Shown: piece by piece, positions 1,978-57,217 of the stretch
Position numbering within the stretch: the first letter of the stretch is position 1
How the letters are laid out: the number at the start of each line of letters is the position of its first letter
DNA from: Terriglobus sp.
GTDB lineage: Bacteria > Acidobacteriota > Terriglobia > Terriglobales > Acidobacteriaceae
Assembly: GCA_965200815.1 (NCBI GenBank)
Contig: OZ241387.1
Coordinates: 17,112-81,111, forward strand
Length of the DNA: 64,000 nt
Direction of reading: 5' to 3'
Translations under genes and position numbers: made by a program
The notes under the pieces: model-generated
Database searches by the model: none
What the model saw: the letters and a program-made list of their open reading frames with translations, nothing else
Told to the model about the DNA's origin: nothing

Positions 1978-2948
1978 TCCCCTGGGACGAGGTGCCGGAC
2001 GTGCTGCCCGAGCCGGGGCCGCACCCGTTGGACGCGCACGAGGACCGCTCCCGGCTTCGGCTGACGCTGGGCGACGGCCGCGTGATCGAAGGGCTCTACA
2101 ACCTGATTGCCCAGCAGCACTTCCTGCATCGCACCGGCCCCGGTCTGCCCTTGGTAAGCCAAGTGGAAGGCCCCCTTCTTGCCGATGACATCGCTGGCGT
2201 CGAAGTGGTGATGACCCGTGCCGAGCTTCGGGACCGTGGGCGCGAGCTGATGCAGGAGCCGCGTGTGCCCGGCCGCGAACCAGTGACGCGCGACGACTTC
2301 GAGCACCGGCTGCAGACCCTGGCCCGCGCCGTCGCCGCGGTGCCGGATGCCGGATGGCAGATGCAGATCCGGCTCAAGCGCCAGTTCGAAGCCTGCGCCG
2401 AGCGGATCCAGCTCACCCCAGGCAAGCGCGCCTGGATGTTGGCCGAGGCCAAGTGGGCGCGGCGCTCCAACGCGCCGCCCACCATGGCTGATCTCTGGGT
2501 GGAACCGGTTGCCTCGCCGAGTTGCTTCGCCCGACCCCGGCCGCAGGACTTCGACCCCGATCCAGCCGTGCGCCGCCAGCGGACGCCGGCGCCGCCCGAG
2601 GTGCGGGCTGACCCGCACTCGGTGCCGAACATGCTGGCCGCTTTGGGTGCCGAGGGCCTCAAGGTCCGGATCACCCGGCTCGGCGACCCGGCACACGACC
2701 GCGGGCACATTCAGGTCGAGATGCCGGTGAAAGGACGAGCCCGCTTCGTCCTGCAAGGTGCTCGCGGTGAGGATGGCCTCATGCACTGGCGCAGTGCGTG
2801 GGACGGGAATGAGAGCAAGGCGGGACAGAAGCGCTTCTACCGCGCCGTCACCACCCCGGCCTACGCCGCCATGGTCCGGGTCATGCGCGATGGTCGCCGC
2901 ACCGTGCAACCGGACCTGTTTACCCATGAGAGGACCGTCGGCAGCTGA
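1974..2948 (+). CDS. Hypothetical protein (backbone)
   Basis: The ORF is open from 1890. GTG 1974 overlaps the upstream stop (GTGA), suggesting translational coupling. GC3 is high; I recognise no motif. Confidence 0.55.
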   Translation: MIPWDEVPDVLPEPGPHPLDAHEDRSRLRLTLGDGRVIEGLYNLIAQQHFLHRTGPGLPLVSQVEGPLLADDIAGVEVVMTRAELRDRGRELMQEPRVPGREPVTRDDFEHRLQTLARAVAAVPDAGWQMQIRLKRQFEACAERIQLTPGKRAWMLAEAKWARRSNAPPTMADLWVEPVASPSCFARPRPQDFDPDPAVRRQRTPAPPEVRADPHSVPNMLAALGAEGLKVRITRLGDPAHDRGHIQVEMPVKGRARFVLQGARGEDGLMHWRSAWDGNESKAGQKRFYRAVTTPAYAAMVRVMRDGRRTVQPDLFTHERTVGS

Positions 2949-2975
2949 AGGAGAGCGGACGGAATGGAGAGAGGA

Positions 2976-2996
2976 TGCATCAAGATGCGTGATGCA
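2976..2996. promoter_or_regulatory. Perfect 7-bp inverted repeat TGCATCA-N7-TGATGCA inside a cluster of four GATGC(A/G) motifs; candidate operator
   Basis: Read directly: tgcatca(2976-2982) agatgcg tgatgca(2990-2996). GATGC motifs start at 2974, 2984, 2991 and 3005. The site lies in a locally lower-GC intergenic stretch just upstream of structured repeat copy 1. Confidence 0.3.
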
Positions 2997-3010
2997 CGAA
3001 GCACGATGCA

Positions 3011-3170
3011 GAAATTAGAGATGGAATGGCTGGCATCACGGCCATCCCGGCACCGCTTCGCTCCATCGCCGCCGTCGCAACCCAGCCCGTCTAGGCCGCA
3101 GCCCTGGCGGGCCGCGTCCCGCGCCAGGCAGGGCCGCTCGCCGGCAATGGTGCCGGGCCAGCCGCGCCGC
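3011..3170 (+). repeat. Structured intergenic repeat, copy 1 (purine-rich leader plus long imperfect hairpin)
   Basis: By my alignment 3045-3170 matches 9304-9429 at about 122 of 126 positions, same orientation. The termini are inverted (CCCGGCACC at 3046-3054, GGTGCCGGG at 3149-3157). The upstream GAAATT-purine tract (3011-) is also shared in diverged form. Confidence 0.7.
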
Positions 3171-3227
3171 CTGCTGGGGAGGGGTCAAGGGAAAGCAGAG
3201 GAGAGCCCGGTGACCACAGGAGTGATG

Positions 3228-3506
3228 ATGACAGCGCCGGTAGAGTCCACACCGTTCGACGATGGGGCGGCCCGGCGAGAGAGTTGGCTGATCGCGGGGG
3301 GCGGCACCGACAACGCCGGGCGACGGCGGGTCGAGCTGTAGCGGCTCGATGATCCGCAGCACGGTGAAAACACGTTTCCCGACGATGGCGATGCTTGGAA
3401 GCACGTCGCCGAACGAGCACGGCGCGGGTCGCCGCTGCACCTCCACGCCCTGGCCCTGGTGGACCCGATCGAGCGAGCGTTGATCGAGCAGCACGCCGGG
3501 CACTGA
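3228..3506 (+). pseudogene. Small acidic hypothetical ORF with one in-frame TAG (3339-3341); coding status uncertain
   Basis: AGGAG at 3218-3222 lies 5 nt before ATG 3228 (alternative GTG 3210 after GAGGAGAG). Translation is MTAPVESTPFDDGAARRESWLIAGGGTDNAGRRRVEL*RLDDPQHGENTFPDDGDAWKHVAERARRGSPLHLHALALVDPIERALIEQHAGH, with TGA at 3504-3506. It sits 40-60 nt after repeat copy 1, the same spacing class as parB and ssb. An exactly antisense ORF (3036..3578, minus) competes with it. Confidence 0.3.
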
Positions 3507-3660
3507 TCCCGATCCCACCACAATCCCCAGCGTGACCCTGAGCGCACGTCGGTCCTGAGTGGGCCGGCGCGCGCTCATACGCCCTCCCTTCCATTCCGCC
3601 CTTGGTCCCCCGTCTGCCCCTGGCAGCTGGGCGCCCGGCGCTGCGCACGAGGTTCCCCCC

Positions 3661-6600
3661 ATGAACAAGGCCCGACGCTCCAACCTGCTGCAGTTCTCGC
3701 TGTTCGACAGCACCGCGCTGAGCGCCCCGCTCGGCACCCCAAGCTCCCTGCGTGAGCAAGTGCCGGTGCCGGAGAACGAGGTGCGTGTCGTGCCGTCCGC
3801 GCTCAAGGCACTCACGGCGCGCAACTTCCGCCTGGTTGGCGACCGCGCGCTGGCCCCGACCTGGAAGGGCCGTGCCGCCGACAATCTGGCCGCCATCCGG
3901 CTGCTGCGGGAGATCGAGGACGAGGACCGGCCGATCACGGCCGACGAGCAGGCGCAGCTGGCAAGGTTCACAGGCTTCGGGGCGTCCGAGCTGGCCAACA
4001 CGCTGTTCCGCCGCGCCGGCGAGGCGTTCCGCCCCGGCTGGGAGGACATGGGCACCGACCTGGAGCAGATGGTCAGCCCGGCCGAACTCGCCGGCCTCAT
4101 GCGCTCGACGCAGTATGCCCACTACACCCCCGAGTTCATGGTGCGGGCGATGTGGGCGACGCTGACCCGCATGGGGTTCGTGGGCGGCTCCATCCTCGAG
4201 CCGGGCTGCGGCAGCGGCCTGTTCCTGTCCCTGCTCCCGGACGCCCTGGCCAGCAAGACCAGCCTGACGGGCATCGAGGCGGACCCGATCACCGCCCGCA
4301 TCGCCCAGCGCCTGCATCCGGACGCCTGGATCCGGCCCGAGGACTTCACCAAGGCGAAGCTGGCCGAGACCTTCGACCTGGCGATCGGCAACCCGCCCTT
4401 CTCGGACCGCACCGTCCGCGCCGACGACGCGAGCGGCAAGCTGGGATTGAGCCTGCACGACTACTTCATCGCCCGTTCCGTGGAGCGGCTGAAGCCAGGC
4501 GGTGTGGCGGCGTTCGTCACCTCGCGCTGGACCATGGACAAGACGTCGACCACGGCGCGCGAGCACATCGCGGGCATGGCCGACCTGATCGGCGCCGTGC
4601 GCCTGCCGCAGGGCGCGATGATGGCCGCCGCCGGCACCGAGGTCGTGGTGGACATCCTGTTCCTGCAGAAGCGCCGCCCCGGCCAGGAGCCGTCCGGCCT
4701 GCTGTGGGACAGCGTGACGGAGGTAGTGCCCGCCGAGGACGGCGAGAGCGCGCTGACGATCAACCGCTACTTCGCCCAGCACCCCGAGATGGTGCTGGGC
4801 GAGCACGCCCGCACCAGCAGCCCCTTCGGACCGACCTACACCTGCCGCGCCCGCGACGGCGTGGACACCGAGGCGGCACTCGGCCGCGCCCTGGCCCTTG
4901 TCAGCAGTGCGGCGCGCATCCCTGTCAGTGAGTCGGCCGCCGCGCCGAAGCCCAAGGCCGCGCGCATCGTGATCGGCACCGCGGCGGAGGGCGCCACCAC
5001 CAAGGAGGGCAGCTACATCCTGCTCGGGCTTGACTTGATGCAGGTGGTGGATGGCCAGGCCGAGCCGGTGGCGGTGAAGTCTGCCACGGTGAAGCAGGGC
5101 ATTTTCGCCAAGCACGCGCGGATCATCCGCGGGTTGATCCCCATCCGCGACGCGGTGCGGAGCGTGCTGCGGGCGCAGGAGGCCAACGAGCCCTGGGGGC
5201 AGGCGCAGATCCGGCTCCGGGCCGCCTACTGCAGCTTCGTGCGGCAGTTCGGTCCGATCAACCAGGCCCGGGTCACGACGCGCACCGACGAGGAAACCGG
5301 TGAGGTGAGCGAGACCGTGCGCCGGCCGAACCTGGCGCCCTTCCTGGATGACCCGGATTGCTGGCTGGTGGCCTCGATCGAGGACTACGACGAGGACACC
5401 GACACCGCCAAGCAGGGCCCGATCTTCACCCAGCGGGTGATCCACCCGCCGGTGGAGCCAGTCATCAGCTCGGCCGCCGACGCGCTCGCGGTGACGCTGC
5501 ACGAGGTCGGCCACGTCGATCCCGACCGCATCGCCGAGCTGCTCGGTCGCCCACGCGCCGAGGTGCTGGCCGAGCTGGGGGACGCGGTGTTCCTCAACCC
5601 GAGCCTGACCACGGAGGCGATGGAGGTGTGGGAGACGGCAGACGCCTACCTGTCCGGCCCGGTCCGCACCAAGCTGGCCGCTGCCGAGGCGGTCGCCGTC
5701 ACCGAAGCCCGCTACGTCCGCAACGTGCCGGCGCTGCGTGCCGTGCAGCCCGACGATTTGAAGCCCAGCGACATCACCGCCCGGCTCGGGGCGCCATGGA
5801 TGCCGGCCGACGTAGTGGAAGCGTTCGTCGCGGAGCAGATGGGGGTGACGGTGCAGATCCGGCACACCGTTGAGATCGCGTGCTGGTCGTTCAACATCCA
5901 TGCCTTCGCCGGCATCGCCGCCGCCACCTCCGAGTGGGGCACGGAGCGCCGCCACGCCGGGCACCTGCTGGAGGACGCGCTGAACGCCGTCATTCCGCAG
6001 ATCTTCGACACCTGGATGGAGGACGGCAAAGAACGCCGGGAGCTGAACGCGGCCGATACCGAGGCGGCGAAGGAGAAGTTGGCCAAGATCAAGACCGCCT
6101 TCGAGCGCTGGGTGTGGCAGGACGCCGACCGGGCCGATCGCCTGTCCCGAATCTACAATGATCGCTTTAACAACTTGGTGCCGCGCACCTTCGACGGCAG
6201 CCACCTGCAGCTGCCGGGTGCGTCCAGCGTGATCCAGATGCGCGGCCACCAGAAGCGGGTGATCTGGCGGGTCATCAGCACGGGCACGACCTACATCGCC
6301 CACGCTGTCGGGGCTGGGAAGACCTTCTCCATGGCCGCGGCGATCATGGAACAGCGCCGGCTCGGCCTGGTGACCAAGGCGATGATGGTGGTGCCGGGTC
6401 ACTGCCTGGCGCAGGCGAGCCGCGAGTTCCTGCTGCTCTACCCGAACGCCCAGATCCTGGTCGCGGACGAGACCAACTTCGCCCGTGAGAAGCGGCAACG
6501 CTTCCTGGCACGGGCGGCCACGGGCACCTGGGACTGCATCATCATCACCCACTCGGCCTTCAAGTTCATCCCGGCTCCGGCGCAGTTCGAGAAGGGGCTG

Positions 6601-8736
6601 ATCGACGCGCAGATCCAGAGCTACGTCGACCTGCTGGAGCGGGTGGACAGCGATGACCGCATCACCCGCAAGCGGCTGGAGCGCCTGAAGGAGCGCATGG
6701 AGGCCAAGCTGGAGGCGCTCGCCAGCCGCAAGGACGACATGCTGACCATCGGCGAGATCGGGGTGGATCAGCTGATCGTGGACGAGGCGCAGGAGTTCAG
6801 GAAGCTCTCCTTCGCCACCAACATGGCGAGCCTGAAGGGCATCAGCCCGGACGGTTCGCAGCGCGCCTGGGACCTGTATGCCAAGTCGCGCTACATCGCG
6901 CAGAGCCAGCCGGCGCGGAACCTGATCCTGGCCTCGGGCACGCCGATCACCAACACGATGGGCGAGATGTTCAGCCTGCAGCGCTTCATGCAGCCGGACG
7001 TGCTGGAGGAGCGCGGGCTGCACGAGTTCGACGCCTGGGCCTCGACCTTCGGCGACACGGTGACGGAGCTGGAGCTGCAGCCGTCCGGCAACTACCAGCC
7101 GGTGACGCGGTTCGCCAACTTCGTCAACGTGGCGGACCTGATTGCCATGTTCCGCTCGGTGTCGGACGTGGTGAGCAAGACCGACCTGCGCGGCTACGCC
7201 AAACTGCCGGACGTCCGCACCGGCAAGCGGCAGATCCTGACCTCTGCCACCAGCCCAGCCTTCAAGGCCTATCAGAAGATCCTGGCCAAGCGGATCGACA
7301 TCATCAAGCAGCGCAAGGGCAAGCCCGAGAAGGGGCAGGACATCCTGCTCTCCGTCATCACCGACGGCCGGCATGCGGCGATCGACCTGCGGTTCGTGCT
7401 GCCGGAGTGCGGGAATGAGGAGGGTAACAAGCTGAACAACCTGGTCAGCAACGTCCACCGCGTTTGGCTGGAGACGCGGGATCGCACCTACCGCAACCCG
7501 TTGACCGGGGAGGCCTACGCCATCCCGGGTGCGGCACAGATGGTGTTCTCGGACCTTGGGACGGAGAACGCCGCAACGACGCGGGGCTTCTCCGCCTACG
7601 AGTGGATCCGGTCCGAGCTGATCCGGCTCGGCGTGCCAACGGCCGAGATCGCCTTCATGCAGCACTACAAGAAGTCGGCCGCCAAGCAGGGCCTGTTCAA
7701 CGACGTGAACAACGGCCGCGTACGCATCCTGCTCGGCTCGACGCAGACCATGGGCACGGGGGTGAACGCGCAGCAGCGCCTGGCCGCGCTGCACCACCTG
7801 GATGTGCCGTGGCTGCCCAGCGACATCGAGCAGCGCGAGGGCCGCATCGAGCGGCAGGGCAACCAGAACGAGGAGATCGACATCTACGCCTACGCCACGC
7901 TGGGCAGCGTGGATGCCACCAACTGGCAGCTGCTGGAGCGCAAGGCGCGGTTCATCGAGGCTGCCCTGGGCGGCGACCGCTCGATCCGCCGACTGGAGGA
8001 CGTGGCCGACACCGCCAGCCAGTTCGCCATGGCCAAGGCGCTGGCCTCGGGCGACCAGCGCCTGATGCAGAAGGCAGGGCTGGAAGCCGAGTTGGCGCGC
8101 ATGGAGCGGCTGCGGGCGGCGCACTTCGACGACCAGCACGCCATCCGCCGGCAGATCACCATGGCCCGCGGCACCATCGCCCGCGCCGCGACCCGGATCG
8201 GTCAGATCGAGCAGGACATCGCGGCGAGGCAGCCCACCCGCGGCGACGCTTTCCGGCTCACCGCGGGAGAGAAGGTGTTCGACGAGCGGAAGGTCGCCGG
8301 AGAGTCGCTGCTCAGCCGCATCCGCCTCACCGAGCGGGCGCAGCAGGTCGGTCAGTGGACTCTTGCCACCCTGGGCGCCTTCGACGTGAAGATGGAGGGC
8401 ACGAGCCGGTTCAGGGGCGAGAGCTACGACCTGGAGGTTTGGATCGAGCGCACCGGCATGGAGCAGCCGGTTCGCCTGGACGGCGACCTGACAGCGCTCG
8501 GGCTGATCTCCCGCCTGGAATACGCTCTCGACCACTTCGAGGTGGAACTGGCCGAGGAGCGGCGGTCGCTCAGCGAGGCCGAGGCTCGCCTGCCCGGCTA
8601 CGAGCGCCGGGTGGGCGAGACCTTCAGCCTGCACGACGAGCTGGAGGCAAAGGCCACCGAGCTGAAGGTGCTCGAAGCCGACCTCGCCGCCAACGACAAC
8701 CGCGACACGGATCCGGATGCCGAGCAGGCCGCCTGA
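3661..8736 (+). CDS. Fused N6-adenine DNA methyltransferase / SNF2-DEAD-type helicase with C-terminal coiled coil (~1690 aa)
   Basis: Methyltransferase motifs: SAM motif ILEPGCGSGLF and catalytic GNPPFSDR (NPPF). Helicase motifs: Walker A AHAVGAGKTF, DEAQ box (LIVDEAQEFRKL), ASGTP, and helicase-C motif QREGRIERQGN. The C-terminus is E/R/A/L-rich. The ORF is open from 3559; I chose ATG 3661 because of a GAGG upstream. Confidence 0.85.
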   Translation: MNKARRSNLLQFSLFDSTALSAPLGTPSSLREQVPVPENEVRVVPSALKALTARNFRLVGDRALAPTWKGRAADNLAAIRLLREIEDEDRPITADEQAQLARFTGFGASELANTLFRRAGEAFRPGWEDMGTDLEQMVSPAELAGLMRSTQYAHYTPEFMVRAMWATLTRMGFVGGSILEPGCGSGLFLSLLPDALASKTSLTGIEADPITARIAQRLHPDAWIRPEDFTKAKLAETFDLAIGNPPFSDRTVRADDASGKLGLSLHDYFIARSVERLKPGGVAAFVTSRWTMDKTSTTAREHIAGMADLIGAVRLPQGAMMAAAGTEVVVDILFLQKRRPGQEPSGLLWDSVTEVVPAEDGESALTINRYFAQHPEMVLGEHARTSSPFGPTYTCRARDGVDTEAALGRALALVSSAARIPVSESAAAPKPKAARIVIGTAAEGATTKEGSYILLGLDLMQVVDGQAEPVAVKSATVKQGIFAKHARIIRGLIPIRDAVRSVLRAQEANEPWGQAQIRLRAAYCSFVRQFGPINQARVTTRTDEETGEVSETVRRPNLAPFLDDPDCWLVASIEDYDEDTDTAKQGPIFTQRVIHPPVEPVISSAADALAVTLHEVGHVDPDRIAELLGRPRAEVLAELGDAVFLNPSLTTEAMEVWETADAYLSGPVRTKLAAAEAVAVTEARYVRNVPALRAVQPDDLKPSDITARLGAPWMPADVVEAFVAEQMGVTVQIRHTVEIACWSFNIHAFAGIAAATSEWGTERRHAGHLLEDALNAVIPQIFDTWMEDGKERRELNAADTEAAKEKLAKIKTAFERWVWQDADRADRLSRIYNDRFNNLVPRTFDGSHLQLPGASSVIQMRGHQKRVIWRVISTGTTYIAHAVGAGKTFSMAAAIMEQRRLGLVTKAMMVVPGHCLAQASREFLLLYPNAQILVADETNFAREKRQRFLARAATGTWDCIIITHSAFKFIPAPAQFEKGLIDAQIQSYVDLLERVDSDDRITRKRLERLKERMEAKLEALASRKDDMLTIGEIGVDQLIVDEAQEFRKLSFATNMASLKGISPDGSQRAWDLYAKSRYIAQSQPARNLILASGTPITNTMGEMFSLQRFMQPDVLEERGLHEFDAWASTFGDTVTELELQPSGNYQPVTRFANFVNVADLIAMFRSVSDVVSKTDLRGYAKLPDVRTGKRQILTSATSPAFKAYQKILAKRIDIIKQRKGKPEKGQDILLSVITDGRHAAIDLRFVLPECGNEEGNKLNNLVSNVHRVWLETRDRTYRNPLTGEAYAIPGAAQMVFSDLGTENAATTRGFSAYEWIRSELIRLGVPTAEIAFMQHYKKSAAKQGLFNDVNNGRVRILLGSTQTMGTGVNAQQRLAALHHLDVPWLPSDIEQREGRIERQGNQNEEIDIYAYATLGSVDATNWQLLERKARFIEAALGGDRSIRRLEDVADTASQFAMAKALASGDQRLMQKAGLEAELARMERLRAAHFDDQHAIRRQITMARGTIARAATRIGQIEQDIAARQPTRGDAFRLTAGEKVFDERKVAGESLLSRIRLTERAQQVGQWTLATLGAFDVKMEGTSRFRGESYDLEVWIERTGMEQPVRLDGDLTALGLISRLEYALDHFEVELAEERRSLSEAEARLPGYERRVGETFSLHDELEAKATELKVLEADLAANDNRDTDPDAEQAA

Positions 8737-9025: not shown

Positions 9026-9111
9026 CCACTCTAGAGGTTTTCGCCTTCGCTGCGCCGGCGGTCATCACGTCCGTCTGCCTGTTGGCAGTGTGGTGGCAGC
9101 TTCGCCACTGA
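9022..9111 (+). CDS. 29-aa single-TM micro-ORF translationally coupled to the preceding gene
   Basis: ATGA overlap at 9022-9025, with GGAGG at 9008-9012. Translation is MTTLEVFAFAAPAVITSVCLLAVWWQLRH, followed by an 8-bp stem-loop (about 9122-9166). It is below the ORF-track length cutoff. Confidence 0.3.
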   Translation: MTTLEVFAFAAPAVITSVCLLAVWWQLRH

Positions 9112-9242
9112 ACTCAAGGTAAGACGGGCTCAGCAGGCTCTACTGGCCTGACTCAGCCCGTCTAACATCCAGGAACGCCGCGGTCGTAGAACTGGCGAAG
9201 CCGCGTTCTTCCAGCGTGCCGCCGACTAACCTTCTCTGTTCT

Positions 9243-9432
9243 GAAATTGGGAGGAAGGGCGGTAGGAGGATGGGAGAGACGGGATGCGCTCGCAGCGCGC
9301 CCGTCCCGGCACCGCTTCGCTCCATCGCCGCCGTCGCAACCCAGCCCGTCTAGGCCGCAGCCCTGGCGGGCCGCGTCCCGTGACAGGCAGGGCCGCTCGC
9401 CGGCAATGGTGCCGGGCCGGCCGCGCTGCGGG
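9243..9432 (+). repeat. Structured intergenic repeat, copy 2 (ends 24 nt before the parB-like start)
   Basis: The core 9304-9429 is near-identical to 3045-3170. The flank 9291-9313 is complementary to 9408-9430 (21 of 23), which extends the stem beyond the conserved core. The purine-rich leader starts at GAAATT (9243). Confidence 0.7.
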
Positions 9433-9455
9433 CTCGGGAAGGGTCTTCACCAGAA

Positions 9456-11249
9456 ATGGGGAGGACGGAGATCAACCTTCCCAGGAGCGACACCGTGGAA
9501 CTCAGGACCGTCAACCCGCGCAAGCTGAAGTTCAACCCCAACAACCCCCGCCGCACCAAGGCGATGCCGGAGCAGGATGCCCAGCTTGCGGCTAACATCC
9601 TGGCCCATGGCCTGATCCAGCCGCCCCTGGTCCGCCAAGAGGGCGAGGACCTGGTGATCGTCGCCGGCGAGCGTCGCGTGCGCTGCTCGATCAAGGCCAA
9701 GCTCACCGAGATCCCCGTGCTGGTCCGAGGTGCCGACGACGGTGCCGACGCGATGCGGTCCCTGGCGGAGAACGTCGTCCGTGCCGAGATGTGCTCGGTC
9801 GACCTGTGGCGGCACGTCGAGGCCATGCTGGGCAGCGACCAGGGCTGGAACGAGCAGGGCGTGGCCACGGCGCTGAACATGAACGTCCGCTCGGTTAAGC
9901 GTCTGAGGCTGCTGGCCAGCATCCATCCGGCGATCCTCGACCACATGGCGCAGGGCGACGAGCCCGACGAAGAGGAGCTGCCGATCATCGCCAACGCTCC
10001 GCTCGAGGAGCAGGAGGCGGTCTGGAAGGCGCACAAGCCCAAGAAGGGTGGCGAGGTGAACTGGTGGATGGTCGCCAATCCGCTGCGGAAGCGTCGCTTG
10101 CTGCGCAAGCACGCCCGCTTCGACGAGGAATTGGCACGCAAGTTCGGCATCGCTTGGGAGGACGATCTGTTCGGTCCTGGGGGAGAGGACAACCTCTACA
10201 CCACCAAGGCCGAAGAGTTTTTCGGGGCACAGACCGAGTGGCTGGCCGTCAACCTGGCCGAGCTGCACCCGCGCGCCTGCATCCTGACCGTTTCCACCTA
10301 CGGCGGTGCCGAGCTTCCGACCGGTGCAGAACGCGCCTACGGCCAGGCTCAGGAGGGTGACGAGGTGGGCTACTATCTCGACCGCCATACCGGAGCCGTG
10401 GAGAGCATTCCATTCCGGACACTCGTGCGCAGCCGTGGCTCCCGCGACGGGGATACCATGGGTCTGCCCAAGACGTCCGGTGCCCGGGCCGACGTCACGC
10501 AAAAGGGCGTCGCCATGGTCGGTGACTTCCGCACCGACGCGCTGCACCAGGCGCTGCGGGAAAACGAGATCGACGATCAGACCCTGATCGGGCTGCTGGT
10601 CCTCGCCCTAGCCGGGAAGAACGTCACCGTGCAATCGACGGTCGAACGCGCGACCTTCCGGCAGATGGACGGCCGCGGCCAGGTGGCCAAGCAGGTGATC
10701 GAGGGTGGCGTGCTCACCAGCGATCCCGACACGGTGCGGACCGCGGCGCGCGCCATGCTTGGCCAGGTGCTGTCCTGCCGCGACGGCATGACCGACAGCG
10801 GTGCCGTGGCCCGCGTGGCGGGCGATGCGATCGGCGCCGACCGCTTCCTGCCGAACATGGCCACCGACGACTTCCTGAAGTGCCTCAGCAAGGGCGCCAT
10901 GGAACGGGCGGCTTCGGCCGAGCGGGTGCTACCCCGCAACACCGGCAAGGCTACGCGCGCGGCACTGATCGAGCAGATCGGGCAGGGCACCTACGTTCTC
11001 CCGGCTGCCCGCTTCGCATTGACCGGACCTGAGCTGGCCAAGCTGGAGGCCAAGGCCGTCGAGCAAGCTGCGTATGGCAGCATCGGCGAGGACGATCCCG
11101 AGGAACCGCTGGCCGATGTCGAGGAAGGCGAGAGCCTTCCCGAGGACGCCGAGGACACCGGGGCTAACGGCGAAGAAGGTGAGGATGACCTCGCCGTTAA
11201 CCTGCCGCCCCCAGGCAACAATGGCAGCTTGACCCAAGCCGCCGCGTGA
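9456..11249 (+). CDS. ParB/Srx-domain protein (plasmid/ICE ParB-like nuclease-domain protein, 597 aa)
   Basis: N-terminal ParB-fold motifs: VELRTVNPRKLKFNPNNPRR and LIQPPLVRQEGEDLVIVAGERRVRC (GERR arginine patch). A long C-terminal extension ends in an acidic tail (EDDPEEPLADVEEGESLPEDAEDTG). Confidence 0.8.
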   Translation: MGRTEINLPRSDTVELRTVNPRKLKFNPNNPRRTKAMPEQDAQLAANILAHGLIQPPLVRQEGEDLVIVAGERRVRCSIKAKLTEIPVLVRGADDGADAMRSLAENVVRAEMCSVDLWRHVEAMLGSDQGWNEQGVATALNMNVRSVKRLRLLASIHPAILDHMAQGDEPDEEELPIIANAPLEEQEAVWKAHKPKKGGEVNWWMVANPLRKRRLLRKHARFDEELARKFGIAWEDDLFGPGGEDNLYTTKAEEFFGAQTEWLAVNLAELHPRACILTVSTYGGAELPTGAERAYGQAQEGDEVGYYLDRHTGAVESIPFRTLVRSRGSRDGDTMGLPKTSGARADVTQKGVAMVGDFRTDALHQALRENEIDDQTLIGLLVLALAGKNVTVQSTVERATFRQMDGRGQVAKQVIEGGVLTSDPDTVRTAARAMLGQVLSCRDGMTDSGAVARVAGDAIGADRFLPNMATDDFLKCLSKGAMERAASAERVLPRNTGKATRAALIEQIGQGTYVLPAARFALTGPELAKLEAKAVEQAAYGSIGEDDPEEPLADVEEGESLPEDAEDTGANGEEGEDDLAVNLPPPGNNGSLTQAAA

Positions 11250-13087: not shown

Positions 13088-13504
13088 TCAGCGGAAAAGG
13101 CGCCCGAGGAAGGAGTTGTTGTGCCCGGCGTCGCCGCCGTGCTGGCTTCCGCCGTGACCTCCACCGTGACCACCTTGGTGCCCAGTGTCGTAGCCCTGCC
13201 CCCAACCGGGAGGCGGGCCGGCTGGCGGGTACCCGGGCAGCGCTGTGGGCGACGCCATCCAGGGACTTTGGGTGGGCAGGAACGGACTCTGGGCCGGTTG
13301 GTTCGGCGTCTCTTGTGGCGACGGTGCAGCAAACTGGGCATTGCGCTCGATGATCTTGTCCAACTCGCCGCGGTCGAGCCACACGCCACGGCACTTCGGG
13401 CAGTAGTCGATCTCGATGCCCTGGCGGTCGCTCATCACCAGGTCCACCCGGCACCGCGGGCATGGCATGCCGGCGGCTGCCGACGATGCTGGGTTGTCAC
13501 TCAT
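13088..13504 (-). CDS. Zinc-ribbon protein with Pro-rich linker and His/Gly-rich tail
   Basis: Start MSDNPASS at 13504, overlapping the ATPase stop by 4 nt (ATGA). Two CxxC pairs (CPRCRVDL...YCPKCRGVWLDRGELDKI) indicate a TFIIB-like zinc ribbon. The tail is GHQGGHGGGHGGSQHGGDAGHNN. Confidence 0.65.
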   Translation of the reverse strand: MSDNPASSAAAGMPCPRCRVDLVMSDRQGIEIDYCPKCRGVWLDRGELDKIIERNAQFAAPSPQETPNQPAQSPFLPTQSPWMASPTALPGYPPAGPPPGWGQGYDTGHQGGHGGGHGGSQHGGDAGHNNSFLGRLFR

Positions 13505-15870
13505 GTTGCTGCTCCAATTGCAGAAACTTGGTCTGCACGGGGACGTTCGGCGGCGGGCGTGCCCGCGCCTGGCCCGCCGACCCCGGGCGGTTTCCACCCG
13601 AGCAGCCTCAGCGCGTTCATCGTCACCAGCACGGTTGCGCCCGTGTCGGCCAGGATCGCCGGCCACAGCCCGGTCAGACCCGCCAGTGTCGTCACCAGGA
13701 ACACCAGCTTGAGGCCGACCGCGACGGCCACGTTCTGCTTGACGTTGGACAGCGTCGCACGCGACAGCGCCACCAGCTCGGCCACGCCAGACACGCGCTC
13801 ACGGAGCAGCGCGGCGTCGGCCGTTTCCAGCGCCACGGCCGTCCCGCCTCCCATGGCAACGCCCACGCTGGCCGCGGCCAGGGCCGGTGCGTCGTTGATG
13901 CCATCGCCCACCATGACAACCGGGCCGCGCGCCTTGAGCGCCTCGATCTCCCGCAGCTTCTGGTCGGGCAGCAGCCCGGCGCGCACGTCCATGCCGAGCG
14001 CGCCCGCGATGGCGCGCCCGGTGCGCTCGTTGTCACCGGTCAGCATGACGGAAGCCACTCCCATGCGCTTCAGCGTGGCGACTGCATCACGTGCATCTCC
14101 GCGCGGCTCGTCCCGCAAGGCGAGCACGCCCAGGGCGCGGCCGTCCCGCAACACGACCACAGCTGTCTTGCCCTGCTCCTCCAGCGCGGTGATCCGGACC
14201 GCCAGGCTTGAAAGGTCGGCACCCTGTTCGGCCGCGTAGCCCGGGCTGCCAACCGCGATGCGCGCGCCCTCGACCAGGGCGACGGCCGCCTTGCCGGGTA
14301 CGGCGCTGGCTTCGGTGGCCGGCGGCGGCTGGATGCCCCGCGCCTCGGCTGCTTGCAGCACGGCGACGGCGAGGGGGTGGGCGCTGCCCGCCTCGACACC
14401 AGCCGCCGCGCGCAGCAGCGCCGCCTCGTCCACGCCATCAGCCGTCAGCACGTCCGTCACGAGCGGGCGCCCGGCGGTGAGCGTGCCGGTCTTGTCAAAG
14501 GCGACCGTCGCCGCCTTGCCGATCGTCTCCAGCGCAGCGCCGCCCTTGACCAGCAAGCCGCGGCGCGCTCCGGCCGAAAGTCCCGACGCCATGGCCGCCG
14601 GGACCGAAATGACGAGGGCGCAGGGGCAGGCAATCAGCAGCACGGCCAGGCCGCGGTAGACCCAGGTGCCCCAGTCGCCGCCGAACAGAAGGGGCGGCAC
14701 CAGGATGACAAGCGCCGACACAACCATCGCACCCGGCGTCCAGTAGGTGCTGAACTTCTCGATGAAACGCTGCGTCGGCGCGCGGCTGGCCGTCGCCTCC
14801 TCCACCATCTTTACAATGCGGCTGAGCGTGTTGTCGGCGGCCGTTGCGGTCACACGGATGCGGAGCAGCGCGGCGGTGTTGACCGACCCGGCGACGACCG
14901 CCTCGCCGACGCCGCGGCTCACCGGGACGCTCTCGCCCGTTACCGGGCTTTCGTCCACTGCGGACTGGCCCTCGACGATCATGCCGTCGCACGGGATGCG
15001 GTCGCCAGGCCGGGCCTGCACGATGTCGCCCAGGCTCAATCGGTCGGCTTGCAGTTCGACGGCCGCACCGTCGCGCTCAACCCGCGCCGTGCGGGGGATC
15101 AGGTCGGCTAGGGCCTTGATGCCGGACCGGGCTTGGCCTGCCGCGACGTTCTCAAGCATCTCGCCGACCGCGAACAGCAGCACGACGATGGCAGCCTCCT
15201 CGGCGGCGCCAATGAACACCGCGCCCACCGCAGCGGCCACCATCAGCGTCTCAATGGAGAACGGGGTGCCAGCGAGGGCCAACGCGAACGCGCGGCGGCC
15301 GAAGGGGAACACGGCGACAAGGGTTGCCGCGACGAAGATCCAGTATGCCTCCGCCGGGAACAGGAGCGAGGCGCCATAAGCCACGGCGACCAACGCGCCA
15401 AGCAGCCACACCAGCTTGGCTTTCCCTGTTCGCCACCAGGCCACGCCAGCGCGCTCCTCGGCTTCGTCCTCCTCGCTGTGCGCATGCATGTGCCCTGCGT
15501 GCGATCCGCCGTCGGAGTGGCTGTGCCCGGCGTGGTCGTGCTCAGCACGGTCATGGTCCGCGTGGTCGTGCCCGGCGTGGTCATGTCCCACATGGTCGCT
15601 GGTTGTCGGCGCCGCAGCCTTGCCCTGCCCTTGCCGGAGGGTCGCCTGGTAGCCCAGGGCGCCTACCGCGCGTGCCACGGCTGCGGGGTCGCTTCCCGGG
15701 GCGACGCGTGCCGTCAGCGTCTCTGCCATCAGGTTGACCTGAATGCCCCCGATGCCGGGCAGCCGCGACACGGCCTTCTCGACCTTGGCGACGCAGGACG
15801 CGCAGTCCATGCCCTGCACCTTCCAGGTCGTGACTTCCCCAACTGCCTCGTTCCTCGTGCCGTCCGGCAT
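13501..15870 (-). CDS. zntA: Heavy-metal translocating P1B-type ATPase (Zn/Cd/Pb type)
   Basis: HMA domain GMDCASCVAKVE; His-rich stretch HVGHDHAGHDHADHDRAEHDHAGHSHSDGGSHAGHMHAH; CPC in TM6 (IACPCALVISVP); DKTGTLT; GDGINDAPAL. I prefer ATG 15870 (GGAG 8 nt upstream) over 15936. Confidence 0.9.
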   Translation of the reverse strand: MPDGTRNEAVGEVTTWKVQGMDCASCVAKVEKAVSRLPGIGGIQVNLMAETLTARVAPGSDPAAVARAVGALGYQATLRQGQGKAAAPTTSDHVGHDHAGHDHADHDRAEHDHAGHSHSDGGSHAGHMHAHSEEDEAEERAGVAWWRTGKAKLVWLLGALVAVAYGASLLFPAEAYWIFVAATLVAVFPFGRRAFALALAGTPFSIETLMVAAAVGAVFIGAAEEAAIVVLLFAVGEMLENVAAGQARSGIKALADLIPRTARVERDGAAVELQADRLSLGDIVQARPGDRIPCDGMIVEGQSAVDESPVTGESVPVSRGVGEAVVAGSVNTAALLRIRVTATAADNTLSRIVKMVEEATASRAPTQRFIEKFSTYWTPGAMVVSALVILVPPLLFGGDWGTWVYRGLAVLLIACPCALVISVPAAMASGLSAGARRGLLVKGGAALETIGKAATVAFDKTGTLTAGRPLVTDVLTADGVDEAALLRAAAGVEAGSAHPLAVAVLQAAEARGIQPPPATEASAVPGKAAVALVEGARIAVGSPGYAAEQGADLSSLAVRITALEEQGKTAVVVLRDGRALGVLALRDEPRGDARDAVATLKRMGVASVMLTGDNERTGRAIAGALGMDVRAGLLPDQKLREIEALKARGPVVMVGDGINDAPALAAASVGVAMGGGTAVALETADAALLRERVSGVAELVALSRATLSNVKQNVAVAVGLKLVFLVTTLAGLTGLWPAILADTGATVLVTMNALRLLGWKPPGVGGPGAGTPAAERPRADQVSAIGAAT

Positions 15871-15898
15871 GCCACCGCTCCGAATATCTGCTGGACAC

Positions 15899-15929
15899 GG
15901 TCTACGGCCTGTAGCCACTAGAGGAGCAA
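15899..15929 (-). promoter_or_regulatory. MerR-type promoter: TTGCTC-N19-TAGACC with imperfect dyad CCTGTAG-CCA-CTAGAGG in the spacer
   Basis: On the minus strand, -35 is 15924-15929, the 19-nt spacer is 15905-15923 and -10 is 15899-15904. This is about 30 nt upstream of zntA ATG 15870 and divergent from the ZIP gene. A 19-20 bp spacer carrying a dyad is the hallmark of MerR-family promoters. Confidence 0.5.
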
Positions 15930-15954
15930 GCCCCAATTGACCCCGGTGTCGTCC

Positions 15955-17797: not shown

Positions 17798-18070
17798 TCA
17801 AGGCTTCGGTGGTGCGCTCTTGTCCCGATGGCCTTGCTCGTCGAGATCGCCGGGCTTATGGCCCGGGTGATCATGGTGAGGACCCGGCTTCTCGGTCACG
17901 CTCTTGTCCCGGTGGCCATGCTCGTCGAGATCACCCGGCGTATGGCCAGGGTGGTCGTGGTGCTGTCCGGGCACCTCTTTCGCGGCCTGATCGCGATGGC
18001 CGTGTTCATCGAGATCGCCTGGCTTGTGGCCGGGATGATCATGGTGAGGACCTGGCTTTTCCTGTGACAT
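17798..18070 (-). CDS. His-rich triple-repeat protein (90 aa), no signal peptide
   Basis: ATG 18070 with AAGGAAG upstream. It contains three ~29-aa repeats KPGPHHDHPGHKPGDLDEHGHRD (diverged ~87-bp tandem DNA repeats, about 17810-18067). Confidence 0.6.
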   Translation of the reverse strand: MSQEKPGPHHDHPGHKPGDLDEHGHRDQAAKEVPGQHHDHPGHTPGDLDEHGHRDKSVTEKPGPHHDHPGHKPGDLDEQGHRDKSAPPKP

Positions 18071-22858: not shown

Positions 22859-24105
22859 TGACCCGATATATGATGCCCGCGCTCGCCATCATTGCCGGAG
22901 TGGGCCTGGCAGCGGCCGTTCCTTCCATCCCGCAGACGGCTCGGCACCTAGTCGGCCTGCCCGTCTCCGGTCCAGCCGAAGCTCGTCCTGCCGCCGCGGC
23001 GACAAGCCCGGATGCTCATGGCAAGGACGAGAAGGAGGGTGCCCATGCCGAAGAGGGCAAGATCGCCATGACGGACGAGCTGATCGGCGCTGCCGGGATC
23101 AAGGTATCCGCCGTCGGAGGCGGCGCGCTGGTCAGCCGCGTCGCCGCCTCCGGCGTGCTCGCCGCCAGCCAGGACCGGCTGGCCCGCGTGACCGCCCGAG
23201 TTGGCGGCACGGTCGTCGAAGTGCGGCGCAGCCTGGGTGAGCGGGTCGCCAAAGGTGATGTGCTCGCGGTGATCGAGAGCCGGGAGATCGCCGAGGCGAA
23301 GGGCGAGTTCCTGGCGGCCTCCCGTACGGCGTCCCTGGCCGAGAGCACGCTGGCGCGCGAAGGGCGGCTGTGGAAGCAGCGCATCTCCGCCGAACAGGAC
23401 TTCCTGCAGGCGCGCACCACGGCCGAGGAGGTCCGCATCCGCGTCGACCTGGCTCGGCAGAAGCTATCCGCCCTGGGCCTGACCGAGGTCGAGATCGTCG
23501 TGCTGCCGCGGCAGCCCGTGGCATCGCTCCGGCGGCTAGAGGTGCGGGCGCCGATCACCGGGCAAATCACGGCCCGCGCCGCGGTGCTGGGTGCCGCCGT
23601 GGGCGGTGACACGGAGCTGTTCAGCGTTGCCGATCTGTCGACGCTGTGGGTGGAGATGGCGATCCCACCACGGGACCTGCCATCGGCTCGTCAGGGCCAA
23701 GCCGTGGCGGTCTCCGGCGAAGGCGGCAGCAAGGGCGAGGGAAAGCTCGTCTTCCTGAGCCCGCTGCTCGACCCAGAGACGCGCTCCGCTCGCGGGGTCG
23801 CCGAATTGGCAAACCCCGACGGCGCGTGGCGGCCCGGCGCCTTCGTCACCGCACATCTGGCGACGGCCGAACAGAAGGTGGACCTGCTGGTCCCGCGCGA
23901 CGCCATCCAGGAGGTCGAGGGCGAGAAGGTCGTGTTCGTCCGCACCGCGGAGGGCTTCGAGAAGCGGGAGATCGCCATCGGCCGCGAGGATAGCGATCGC
24001 GTCGAGGTGGTCTTTGGACTGGAGCCCGGCACCGAGATCGCTGTGGGCAACGCCTTCGCGCTGCGGGCCGAGCTCGCGAAGTCCGAAGCGTCGCACAGCC
24101 ACTAG
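22855..24105 (+). CDS. czcB: RND periplasmic adaptor (membrane fusion protein), system 1
   Basis: N-terminal TM MMTRYMMPALAIIAGVGLAAA; lipoyl-like hairpin RVTARVGGTVVEVRRSLGERVAKGDVLAVIES; beta-barrel C-terminal part. Confidence 0.85.
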   Translation: MMTRYMMPALAIIAGVGLAAAVPSIPQTARHLVGLPVSGPAEARPAAAATSPDAHGKDEKEGAHAEEGKIAMTDELIGAAGIKVSAVGGGALVSRVAASGVLAASQDRLARVTARVGGTVVEVRRSLGERVAKGDVLAVIESREIAEAKGEFLAASRTASLAESTLAREGRLWKQRISAEQDFLQARTTAEEVRIRVDLARQKLSALGLTEVEIVVLPRQPVASLRRLEVRAPITGQITARAAVLGAAVGGDTELFSVADLSTLWVEMAIPPRDLPSARQGQAVAVSGEGGSKGEGKLVFLSPLLDPETRSARGVAELANPDGAWRPGAFVTAHLATAEQKVDLLVPRDAIQEVEGEKVVFVRTAEGFEKREIAIGREDSDRVEVVFGLEPGTEIAVGNAFALRAELAKSEASHSH

Positions 24106-24121
24106 CCCGGGAGGCGAGAAG

Positions 24122-27100: not shown

Positions 27101-27370
27101 GTGTTCCAGGGCGCCATGACCCGGCTGCGGCCCGTTGCGATGACGGCCCTGGTGGCCTCGCTGGGCTTCGTGCCGATGGCGTTGGCGACCGGGCCGGGTG
27201 CCGAAGTGCAGAAGCCCCTTGCCACGGTCGTCATCGGCGGACTGATCAGCGCCACGATCCTGACGCTTCTGGTGCTGCCCGCCCTCTACATGCGGTTCAA
27301 TCGGGCCACCGTAACAAATCCTTCGACCGCAGACCAGGTGCCGAAGGCCCAACCTACGGCGGCCGAGTGA
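24122..27370 (+). CDS. czcA: Heavy-metal-efflux RND permease (CzcA family), system 1
   Basis: 1082 aa. N-terminus MIGRILDFAVHRRW...PIDAVPDITNNQAQI, plus the HME-type TM4 motif DFGLIVDGAVIITEN. Confidence 0.9.
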   Translation: MIGRILDFAVHRRWTVVIMALLAAAVGGHALTRLPIDAVPDITNNQAQISTVAPSLSPFEIEKQVTLPIEMALAGIPGLESTRSVSRNGFSQVTAVFTEDTGIYFARQQVLERLAEARETMPPGAEPRLGPVSTGLGEVTMWTVGYADRKAGDVVADGISGWQADGSYRTPEGERLADDASRAAYLRTVQDWVIRPQLRTLSGLAGVDAIGGYVKQFVVQPDPARLMALGLTFRDLGEALERNNASMGAGYVERGGEGLVVRSAGRLSKVAEMEQVVVATRNGVPVLLRDVANVETGQAPRLGSASENGREVVVGTALMLIGGNSRTVAAAVEERLAEVRKTLPPGIEAKSVLDRGVLVDSTIRTVAKNLAEGALLVVAVLFLMLGNIRAALITAAVIPVTMLLTAFGMVRGGISANLMSLGALDFGLIVDGAVIITENSLRHLAERQHEFKRKLDLEERLRTVAESAREMIRPSLFGQGIIILVYAPLLTFTGVEGKMFVPMALTVIIALVFAFVLSLTLVPALIAIAITGRVKEEEVWLVRVLKRGYGPTLNASLRAPVPVIAGGAVLFALSLMLFSRLGQEFIPTLDEGNLAMQALRIPSTSLPQSQSMQSAVEKRVSAFKEVAFIYSKTGTAEVASDPMPPSASDTFIILRPRAEWPDPHLDKDELVKRIEASVARLPGNALEFSQPIQMRFNELLAGVRGDLAVKVFGDEYEPMLKATSQIAAILNRVDGASDVKVEQAQGLPFLEITVDRAEIARRGLSVTAVQDVVSAAIGGKESGVVFEGDRRFAIVVRLAESVRSDMEALRNLPVPLPAVEGRPLGTVPLRQVAALNVVAGPNQISRENGKRRVVVQANARGRDIGSLVAEARAKVEAEVRLPPGYYITWGGQFENLAKAQARLSIVVPACFLLIILLLYGALGSFRDALLVFSGVPLALSGGLLALWLRDMSFSVSAAVGFIALSGVAVLNGLVMATSIRGLLEAGRLSLRDAVFQGAMTRLRPVAMTALVASLGFVPMALATGPGAEVQKPLATVVIGGLISATILTLLVLPALYMRFNRATVTNPSTADQVPKAQPTAAE

Positions 27371-29715: not shown

Positions 29716-30213
29716 TTAGACCGGCGCCGTGGCACGCGTTTCATCGCGCCTTAAAGTCAGCAGCAGCAGGAGCATCACACCCAGGAAAATCGCTGAATCA
29801 GCGATATTGAAGGCAGGCCAGTGATAGCCGCCTGCGTGAAAGTCGAGGAAGTCCGTTACCGCACCATGACGCAGCCGGTCCACCACATTGCCGAGCGCGC
29901 CGCCCGTGATCAAGCCGACCGCTACCGCATTGAAGGGCCTGAAGTCATGGCGGGTCCAGAGGATAAAGCCTGCAATCACTGCAAGCGCGAACGCGGACAG
30001 TATCCATGGCGTTGCGGGATGGTCGGCCGAGAGCATGCCGAAGCTCACACCACGATTTCGACCCAGCACCACGTTGAAGAACGGGGTAACGGTCAGGACG
30101 CGCAGCGGATCGAGCAATGTCGCCAGAGCCCAAGCTTTGGTGACCTGGTCGAGCGCAAACGCGAGGATCGCGGGGGCGGCAATCCAGCCCCAGGGGATGC
30201 GGCGCTCAGCCAT
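29716..30213 (-). CDS. lspA: Lipoprotein signal peptidase II
   Basis: DQVTKAW, FFNVVLGRNRGVSFG, GGALGNVVDRLRHGAVTDFLDF and WPAFNIADS. ATG 30213 overlaps the cadA stop by 8 nt. Confidence 0.85.
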   Translation of the reverse strand: MAERRIPWGWIAAPAILAFALDQVTKAWALATLLDPLRVLTVTPFFNVVLGRNRGVSFGMLSADHPATPWILSAFALAVIAGFILWTRHDFRPFNAVAVGLITGGALGNVVDRLRHGAVTDFLDFHAGGYHWPAFNIADSAIFLGVMLLLLLTLRRDETRATAPV

Positions 30214-55292: not shown

Positions 55293-55398
55293 TCGGTGAC
55301 CGTGCGAGCCGTGAAACGGTGACGAGAGGAGGCGAGGTAGTGAAGACGGGAAGGATGGTTGAGAGGGTTGAGAGGGGAGAGACTTGGGGCTGACACTG

Positions 55399-57031: not shown

Positions 57032-57089
57032 CCTGATCGCCCCGGACACTTCGCGCCGGCGTCTCTCGATCCTGCCCTGCTGACGGGCG

Positions 57090-57105
57090 CCCGGCGAAAG
57101 CCGGG
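57090..57105 (+). terminator. GNRA-loop hairpin cccggc-gaaa-gccggg followed by attgtt
   Basis: Read directly; it lies 59 nt after the stop at 57031. Confidence 0.4.
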
Positions 57106-57217
57106 ATTGTTCAGCACCCCTTATCAGGAGTTTTCCCATGACCCGCACGCGCTTCGGCACGGGCACACGCGCTGCTGCGCGCGTGCGCCGCCTCTCCCCC
57201 TCTCCGGGAGAGCCGTC

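Follow-up and report, generated by a model that had tools for sequence, protein, structure and literature searches.

A family of template-strand DNA hairpins before leading-region genes of alphaproteobacterial plasmids: a candidate single-stranded start signal

Promoters that work on single-stranded DNA (ssDNA) have so far been described only for the enterobacterial IncF and IncI plasmids, where they account for anti-defence and establishment genes being expressed while the incoming strand is still uncopied. Plasmid F carries two such elements, Frpo1 and Frpo2, which are 92% identical and lie ~5 kb apart (PMC9849209), and Frpo2 controls the ParB-like gene yfjB/herB of F (PMC13370423). On pESBL and F, the ssDNA promoters of class 2 (ardA/klcA; ssp2) and of class 3 (M.EcoGIX methyltransferase) are non-homologous hairpins with the function of Frpo (PMC12672017; PMC13478746). 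Thus, several unrelated classes of ssDNA promoter can coexist beside Frpo within one leading region, one of them driving a DNA methyltransferase. The enterobacterial ssDNA promoters are poorly induced in Sinorhizobium, and a tuning to host sigma factors has been suggested (PMC12672017). Here, we analyse a 144-nt element that occurs twice in a 64,000-nt stretch of DNA from Terriglobus sp. (contig OZ241387.1, positions 17,112 to 81,111 of the forward strand; hereafter the window). The element has a defined hairpin structure, folds on the strand opposite the gene that it precedes, keeps a fixed position and orientation before leading-region genes and, in relatives, has a constant polarity relative to the transfer origin (oriT). 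Sequence comparison places it in a previously undescribed family (family A) carried by ~400 alphaproteobacterial plasmids.

The original prediction had noticed a repeat with 122 of 126 identical positions between 3045-3170 and 9304-9429, and we reproduced this value exactly, with mismatches at 3122, 3124, 3160 and 3168. Ungapped similarity extends over 3029-3186 and 9288-9445 (145/158) and leaves out the flanking genes, so the neighbouring coding DNA is unduplicated, as had been stated. A 52-nt core pattern has two matches in the window, where 100 shuffles led us to expect 0. As delimited by a covariance model, the structural unit is 144 nt long and occupies 3030-3173 (copy 1; model R1, 139.2 bits, E 4.6e-25) and 9289-9432 (copy 2, upstream of a ParB-like gene; model R1, 139.1 bits), both copies folding on the minus strand, which is the template of the genes downstream of each. 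Its G+C content is 78-80%. All motifs named in the original prediction were present at both copies: CCCGGCACC at 3046 and 9305, GGTGCCGGG at 3149 and 9408, and a purine-rich tract beginning GAAATT, this hexamer lying at 3011 and 9243. The 45 nt upstream of copies 1 and 2 are 69% and 82% purine, respectively, compared with 50% in the window. On the plus strand, the tract upstream of copy 1 spans 3005-3029 and appears on the template strand as a pyrimidine tract 3' of the hairpin; that of copy 2 spans 9243-9288 (82% purine) and is a conserved feature of the module. The copies differ at 11 positions of the 144-nt unit, 6 in unpaired and 5 in paired columns, and all five paired-column differences retain the pair, one of them by a full G-C to C-G swap (3171/3032 versus 9430/9291). 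Concerted evolution left no clear trace: the window copies were 92.4% identical to each other, and orthologous comparisons gave 91.7% and 88.2%.

Folding both strands as ssDNA favoured the minus strand, as the original model required: for 3030-3190, the DNA fold of the minus strand reached -55.5 kcal/mol (z -2.95 against shuffled sequences) and that of the plus strand -40.2 kcal/mol (z +1.2). When 21.6 kb of backbone were scanned with a 150-nt sliding window, the two copies emerged as the most stable and most strand-asymmetric segments (best segment over copy 1, minus -56.6 versus plus -39.2 kcal/mol; over copy 2, minus -60.8 versus plus -43.4 kcal/mol). The minus-strand advantage is ~17 kcal/mol at both copies, against a background strand difference of -0.8 +/- 3.6 kcal/mol in the same scan. 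All 50 of the 50 model pairs form in each copy, including 9 G·T pairs in copy 1 and 6 in copy 2, with no A·C in either. The long imperfect hairpin that had been proposed is thus real, but these folds predict it for the minus strand only, from which the plus-strand genes downstream are transcribed.

Is the element found elsewhere? BLASTN recovered copies in 24 plasmids of Roseomonas, Rhodovastum, Beijerinckia, Neorhizobium and Rhizobium, and each copy lies in intergenic DNA that carries no annotation. Genome contigs yielded 545 relatives of the window ParB-like protein; we collected 80 alphaproteobacterial loci encoding such relatives and built the covariance model from 10 copies of the element. 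This model gave 50 strong matches (E 1e-8 to 1e-25), every one on the strand opposite the gene, and all but an orphan in pTA1_3 precede a ParB-like gene or the Roseomonas methylase-helicase unit. Among the ParB loci, 42 of the 80 carry the element (39 of the 71 with enough upstream sequence, plus three further loci whose copy is cut by a contig end); there it precedes the start of the ParB-like gene by 60-110 nt and lies on the other strand. With a Rhizobiales-type copy as query, 414 places were matched in 392 PLSDB plasmids, and 434 places in 408, at one or two copies each; 272-288 of the matched plasmids are typed conjugative, and their hosts include Agrobacterium, Rhizobium, Bradyrhizobium, Sinorhizobium, Mesorhizobium and Shinella. 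Replicons of 1.9-2.6 Mb gave single matches. The dispersed REP-like repeat that the original prediction had weighed as an alternative is therefore not what we found: the element is present at one or two copies per replicon and its strong matches stand before ParB-like or methylase-helicase units, with one orphan. No REP/RIME-like dispersal was seen in the 64-kb window (two copies), the PLSDB replicons (one or two each) or 1.3 Mb of loci, host chromosomes being outside the scan. The orphan (L004:14992-15139, Rhizobium ruizarguesonis pTA1_3) adjoins no annotated ParB-like gene; its BLAST similarity extends ~190 nt into the ParB coding sequence, and it looks like the remnant of a decayed locus. 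Rfam 15 had no match in the window at gathering score and only chance-level ones within 2900-3300 at E <= 10, nor did Rfam match the element in 10 Rhizobiales loci. A search of the literature and Rfam found no description of an alphaproteobacterial class of ssDNA promoter.

The family conserves pairing. In the model-based alignment, 89.3% of cells at paired positions are paired, compared with 33-46% when the partners are slid, and changes on both sides occur in 38 of 48 pairs; none of 500 shuffles reached any of the observed measures, with the proviso that the sequences are related by descent, so that cell counts overstate the number of independent events. An independent MAFFT/RNAalifold alignment, made without the model, recovered the hairpin with 21 of 37 pairs covarying. 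The compensatory substitutions that the original prediction had proposed to look for are thus present, and the copies of relatives keep the pairing. Strand preference is equally clear at the family level: (i) paired positions of 53 sequences hold 262 G·T against 25 A·C; (ii) when the alignment is read on the sense strand, paired cells drop from 89.3% to 79.7% and the conserved wobbles become A·C mismatches; and (iii) the upstream region is more stable on the template strand in all 39 of the 39 loci with the element, by a mean of 10.4 kcal/mol. The excess of G·T over A·C argues that the fold belongs to the template strand and not to the sense strand.

What first appeared as an 8-nt bulge of the 3' arm is a branch that holds a mini-hairpin, GCGAAGC, with a GC stem and a GAA loop. 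It lies on the minus strand at 3055-3061 in copy 1, as read from sequence and family conservation, and in the same register at 9314-9320 in copy 2 (offset 6259), and it was predicted de novo by RNAalifold on the independent alignment. The branch is kept as GC-[GNA]-GC or GC-[GNNA]-GC in 46 of the 50 family-A members, the Acetobacteraceae having the GNA form and the Rhizobiales the GNNA form, whose third loop position is frequently C or T. Of the four exceptions, three retain a small stem-loop through paired changes (CCGAAGG in pBIND01, GCCCTTGGGC in L068 and GCGAATGCGC in L080), L082 retains only a shorter GCGAATGC stem, and one copy of the 50, L063, is devoid of a mini-hairpin. Hirao and co-workers reportedly established d(GCGAAGC) and d(GCGAAAGC) as classic, extraordinarily stable DNA mini-hairpins. 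In such structures, the loop is closed by a sheared G·A pair, and the RNA versions are much weaker; GNA and GNNA loops are typical of very stable DNA mini-hairpins, whereas RNA prefers GNRA loops. Given these properties, the loops of family A lean towards a structure that acts at the DNA level. Each arm also has a conserved unpaired motif, CGAGCG on the 5' side and TnGAGCG on the 3' side.

Read in the sense of the gene, most members share one module order: a purine tract of 30-40 nt (by inspection, missing upstream of L005, L044 and L057), the 144-nt hairpin, a conserved CnGGG...GTCTTC stretch, then a small hairpin or two and a Shine-Dalgarno site ahead of the gene. From the end of the element to the start codon there are 36-62 nt in the window, and 36-110 nt when every gene-linked copy is considered. 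In the window, the leader hairpin after copy 1 (GGTCA...TGACC; 3183-3215, plus strand) has an RNA fold of -11.2 on plus versus -8.9 on minus, and the one after copy 2 (GTCTTC...GAGGAC, with a sense-strand T·G wobble; 9443-9466, plus strand) -14.1 on plus versus -10.0 on minus; the latter is conserved in Rhizobiales as GTCTTC...GAAGAC. In 45 of 50 members, the sense strand gives the first small leader hairpin the better fold, opposite to the 144-nt hairpin. This preference, which serves as an internal control, fits a transcript starting between both structures.

Which genes stand behind the two copies? Behind copy 1, a small open reading frame (ORF; 3210-3509, plus strand) opens with GTG at 3210, the first of the two starts (3210/3228) named in the original prediction. 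Its homologue in an R. mucosa plasmid is a 99-aa hypothetical protein, with 66% identity over 97 aa, through the stop (tblastn). The ORF is interrupted by an in-frame TAG at 3339-3341, where the R. mucosa codon is CAA, which could reflect a pseudogene, a sequencing error or read-through. Pfam gave no match for the small ORFs behind the hairpins. The second gene of this unit (3658-8736, plus strand, ATG 3658) encodes a 1692-aa fusion of an N6-methylase with an SNF2/helicase (N6_Mtase, Eco57I, ResIII, SNF2-rel_dom and Helicase_C) and equals in length the coding sequence 18257-23335 of L001. Copy 2 precedes a ParB-like leading-region gene (9495-11249, plus strand; Pfam ParB_N, E 1.8e-15). Its ORF opens at ATG 9456, the start first proposed; by homology, GTG 9495 is probably the correct one, since the homologous proteins begin VELRTVNPR. 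Relatives add ArdC-like and DUF3991-Toprim genes to the same one-strand array, and this set (ArdC-like, PAPS-reductase-like, methylase-helicase, ParB-like and ssb genes on one strand) is typical of leading regions. A DUF3991-Toprim (primase-like) gene heads the array in L001, L002, L003, L005 and L093, wherever that end is visible.

In which direction would the element enter a recipient? The window holds no relaxase or type IV secretion genes, and neither do 1-50 kb and 66-111 kb of its closest relative, NZ_CP025064.1 (95 of 111 kb). We therefore drew the polarity from more distant relatives. In all seven relaxase-bearing carriers, namely pBIND01 (MOBF), pNCHU2750d, NZ_CP115846.1, CP140836.1, R. 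etli p42a, Labrenzia pTHAF35_b and a Bradyrhizobium plasmid, the array points to oriT, in the same sense as a relaxase gene on the far side; plasmid F has the same layout of array, oriT and relaxase. In the oriT gap of p42a, the minus strand reads an inverted repeat followed by the nic-like motif TATAATTGCGCCCT, which places the motif on the folding strand. We take the nicked strand to carry the repeat 5' of nic, as in the oriT organisation of RSF1010/R1162 and pTiC58, and for MOBQ plasmids the polarity rests partly on this organisation. With this assumption, the orientation of the p42a motif makes minus the transferred strand, so that the element region would enter first and the hairpin would fold on the strand that enters. 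The original prediction had called for an oriT on the downstream side of the array and for transfer of the minus strand; the seven distant relatives agree on the first and the p42a motif on the second. The folding strand is thus probably the strand transferred in conjugation.

What does the element do? We propose that the transferred strand carries it as a cis-acting start signal in ssDNA form, most likely as a promoter, and that it is an alphaproteobacterial counterpart of Frpo/ssp of F, a reading to which we assign a probability of about 55%. We infer polymerase recruitment, a start site near the hairpin base and an on/off behaviour. As the plasmid enters, the transferred strand would be the template strand of the leading-region genes, and the 144-nt sequence on it would snap into the long imperfect hairpin with its GCGAAGC side mini-hairpin. 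The folded hairpin may then recruit a polymerase, and transcription would begin near the hairpin base and proceed on the single-stranded template towards oriT. The resulting mRNA would carry at its 5' end the small stabilising stem-loop, followed by the Shine-Dalgarno site and the gene. Copy 2, in the ancestral position, would serve the ParB-like gene, and copy 1 would be a lineage-specific duplicate that puts the small ORF and the methylase-helicase unit under the same early control. Synthesis of the complementary strand would remove the hairpin and switch the signal off. The original prediction had taken the repeats for the functional equivalent of the F elements: strand, pairing, position and polarity bear this out, homology to Frpo does not, and the element would be an analogue with a presumed promoter activity.

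Several observations weigh against this proposal. First, the element shows no sequence similarity to Frpo: a BLASTN search with Frpo1 and Frpo2 of F against the window and 94 loci gave no match at E <= 0.01, where the class 1 homology criterion of Samuel et al. 2024 is BLAST E <= 1e-6 and our positive control aligned Frpo1 with Frpo2 at 88.8% over 465 nt; likewise, covariance model R2 found no match in the leading region of F. Second, the element is 144 nt long, compared with ~310 nt for Frpo, and is devoid of the A+T-rich apex of Frpo. Third, no sigma-70 -35/-10 pair was found on either strand in 2850-3350 and 9100-9600, the consensus being that of E. coli, from which alphaproteobacterial promoters differ, and no positionally conserved alphaproteobacterial CTTGAC-N17-CTATAT could be placed by eye. 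Fourth, most Roseomonas carriers are typed non-mobilizable and, with no relaxase or type IV secretion genes in the window or in the 95 kb of its closest relative, transfer of this very replicon is conjectural. Finally, the distance between the element and oriT in relatives is 12-30 kb, more than that of Frpo in F.

Other known signals were considered for the same sequence and set aside. TAGACG, TTGCGA and TTGAGC as -35 elements had no positionally conserved -10 partner. A sigma-54 -24/-12 site (GGCACC-ATTGCC in the 5' arm, by eye) was rejected because its GG-to-GC spacing is 7 nt and not 10. An intrinsic terminator lacks its T-run directly after the G+C-rich stem. Integron attC sites and IS200/IS605 ends were dropped, there being no flanking integrase or TnpA gene and, by eye, no R/L-box consensus.

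In a bolder form of the proposal, the hairpin would be no sigma-70 mimic but would stand for a mechanistically different start of synthesis on incoming ssDNA: needing no boxes, it would be recognised by its conserved GNA/GNNA mini-hairpin and its GAGCG loops, and by a non-canonical factor, for example the DUF3991-Toprim protein or a host factor specific to Alphaproteobacteria. At least three hairpin families (A and, below, B and C) would share this logic across Ti/Ri, symbiotic and Acetobacteraceae plasmids. We regard this form as possible, if doubtful.

How do other explanations fare? The same strand, polarity and structure would be expected of a priming (single-strand initiation) site or of a complementary-strand roadblock devoid of promoter function, which would load a primase, be it a host primosome or the plasmid DUF3991-Toprim protein, or would stall the replisome and so set the time at which the leading region turns double-stranded. 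The missing -35/-10 boxes fit such a non-promoter signal, and because E. coli-type boxes are missing, promoter and priming functions cannot be separated here. The DUF3991-Toprim gene at the head of the array in five plasmids and the template-strand pyrimidine tract 3' of the hairpin also speak for it, and there is precedent, as Frpo of F yields primer RNA in vitro and ssp2 is a replication roadblock (PMC12672017; bioRxiv 10.64898/2026.01.09.698686). A priming site, however, would not have to keep a fixed distance of 36-110 nt to a start codon, as every gene-linked copy does; nor would it call for duplication to a second such position or for the sense-strand leader hairpin that follows. Overall, we find priming or roadblocking unlikely, if the strongest of the alternatives.

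A minus-strand RNA, pairing in cis with the 5' leaders of the ParB-like and methylase mRNAs and controlling their translation or stability, would show identical G·U pairs and covariation, and enterobacterial leading regions do carry the antisense-controlled flm/hok-sok (PMC9849209). Yet at neither copy did a scan, made with the E. coli consensus only, find a promoter- or terminator-like site on the minus strand; on either strand around both copies there were 0 terminator-like sites, and what follows the stem, at an offset, is a tract of mixed C and T and not a U-run at the stem. As GNA triloops, or GNNA loops whose third position is a pyrimidine, the loops differ from the GNRA favoured by RNA, there is no Rfam match, and the element overlaps neither Shine-Dalgarno site nor start codon, ending 36-62 nt before the starts. 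This makes an antisense RNA improbable. Slightly more so would be a binding platform on ssDNA for a leading-region protein (ArdC-like, SSB or ParB-like), serving protection or nucleation and not initiation: the unpaired CGAGCG and TnGAGCG motifs and the mini-hairpin could be its contacts, and neighbouring genes do encode ssDNA- or DNA-binding proteins, but such a platform would seem to leave the fixed place before start codons and the sense-strand leader hairpin unexplained.

An operator or cruciform in double-stranded DNA for a repressor, or a dispersed palindrome of REP/RIME type, is suggested by a long imperfect intergenic palindrome found twice in the window. Both are very improbable. A double-stranded site would conserve sequence and not pairing, whereas the pairs covary and G·T exceeds A·C tenfold, a pattern that only folding within one strand explains; moreover, there are one or two copies per replicon, even at 1.9-2.6 Mb, and a single strong match (pTA1_3) lies away from its gene. 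Least of all do we credit a structured 5' leader of the sense mRNA (riboswitch-like, attenuator or thermosensor), which the constant orientation directly upstream of coding regions would allow, because on the sense strand the paired cells fall to 79.7% with wobbles turned into A·C, the plus-strand fold is no better than shuffled (z +1.2) and Rfam has no match.

Template-strand hairpins are not confined to family A. Upstream of ssb in the window, a hairpin of ~230 nt at 55385-55615, with a purine tract at 55320-55390, folds on the minus strand at -66 kcal/mol (z -3.19, 0/200 shuffles), compared with -55.6 kcal/mol (z -1.6) on the plus strand; L001 (an R. mucosa plasmid) has a homologous sequence before its own ssb, and the hairpin shares short blocks with a second set of loci in Rhizobiales, family B, to which we assign it. 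Among weak full-length matches of the second model, 17 of 17 new ones are on the template strand, and nine of them form family B (L061:9802-9947, L074:8668-8808, L082:8953-9091, L083:10506-10664, L094:11236-11391, L095:38775-38898 and others), which in Rhizobiales lies ~95 nt before a conserved 195-aa ORF with no Pfam match. Family B has GAGCGAAC and a GCG-NNA-GC mini-hairpin in common with family A, but GNA mini-hairpins whose stem has 3 bp or more are not enriched in it (3 versus 4). Family C is a hairpin of ~110 nt with GNA triloops (e.g., CCGGC-GAA-GCCGG) before ParB-like genes that lack family A; in the loci examined (L010, L013, L016, L018, L025, L032, L035 and L042), it spans ~-230 to -50 relative to the ParB-like gene. 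Across the 32 ParB loci without family A, the template strand has 38 GNA mini-hairpins and the coding strand 5. A further strand difference was seen at 56951-57100 (minus -42.4 versus plus -29.3 kcal/mol), just before the plus-strand ORF 57107-57451, where the z of the 201-nt fold is only -1.43.

The remaining array genes of the window lie on the plus strand and comprise a PAPS-reductase-like gene (313-1293), a DUF6927 gene (1438-1977), ssb (55687-56157) and a Fic gene (58525-59403). Between the ParB-like unit and ssb, the array is split by an insert of ~43 kb (12500-55114), which, judged from ORF size, looks like metal-resistance cargo. The insert holds two paralogous ORFs of ~800 aa (13501-15936 and 30206-32395, with blocks 71-76% identical) and three of ~1,100 aa (24014-27370, 42531-45701 and 49279-52551), and its Pfam matches are a DsbD-like gene, an SBF-family transporter gene and, at its end, a DDE transposase gene (53921-55114). 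Three tandem 84-nt repeats, 76-79% identical, at 17802-18053 in the cargo region may belong to a coding segment of repetitive make-up. On the other strand from the leading array, downstream of the Fic gene, a 991-aa ORF (60329-63304, minus strand) has AAA_21, SMC_N and AAA_23 matches of the kind found in abortive-infection/OLD-like defence ATPases.

How does the element compare with known single-stranded signals? Folded ssDNA signals that are specific in strand and orientation and have conserved unpaired loop motifs are well known from the single-strand origins ssoA/ssoU of rolling-circle plasmids and from ssi priming sites of the phiX174/G4 type, where RNA polymerase or a primase reads them to begin synthesis on a single strand. 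Those signals serve replication only and are not tied to start codons, unlike the element, in which no RSB or CS-6 motif and no similarity in sequence was seen by eye. The promoters of the phage N4 virion RNA polymerase are template-strand DNA hairpins as well, with a three-base loop and stems of 5-7 bp, and are read by a phage-encoded single-subunit polymerase; we mention them as a lead only, and no gene for an N4-type single-subunit polymerase was seen in the window or its relatives.

The closest likeness is to class 1, which comprises Frpo1/Frpo2 (ssp1a/b) of F and ssi1-3 of ColIb-P9/pESBL. These too are long imperfect hairpins on the template strand and lie in intergenic DNA just upstream of leading-region units that point to oriT. 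Like the window, F has a pair of near-identical copies (~6 kb apart in the window and ~5 kb in F), and Frpo2 likewise precedes a large ParB-like gene, yfjB/herB, although the window ParB-like protein is not detectably similar to F YfjB/HerB (BLASTP E 1.4). Unlike class 1, the element lacks an A+T-rich UP element and canonical -35/-10 boxes, as scanned with the E. coli consensus; unlike Frpo, it has a conserved GNA/GNNA mini-hairpin branch, and its hosts are Alphaproteobacteria. With no homology, half the size, no boxes and a mini-hairpin, the element would be Frpo-like in its working and not a member of the Frpo family. Classes 2 and 3 offer another parallel, as the window also holds at least two hairpin families (A and B) and one copy precedes the methylase-helicase gene. 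In contrast to these classes, which reconstitute -35/-10 boxes and have starts mapped by rapid amplification of 5' ends (5' RACE), the window element is known from its sequence alone and is likened to them by description.

A defined element with a strand prediction makes early post-transfer expression testable in well-studied systems, R. etli p42a among them, and the covariance model provides an annotation rule that would show where the leading region of an alphaproteobacterial plasmid lies and which of its strands is transferred. If our proposal is true, family A would be the missing alphaproteobacterial counterpart of the enterobacterial ssDNA promoters, on plasmids that include those of Agrobacterium, Rhizobium, Sinorhizobium, Mesorhizobium, Bradyrhizobium and human-skin Roseomonas.

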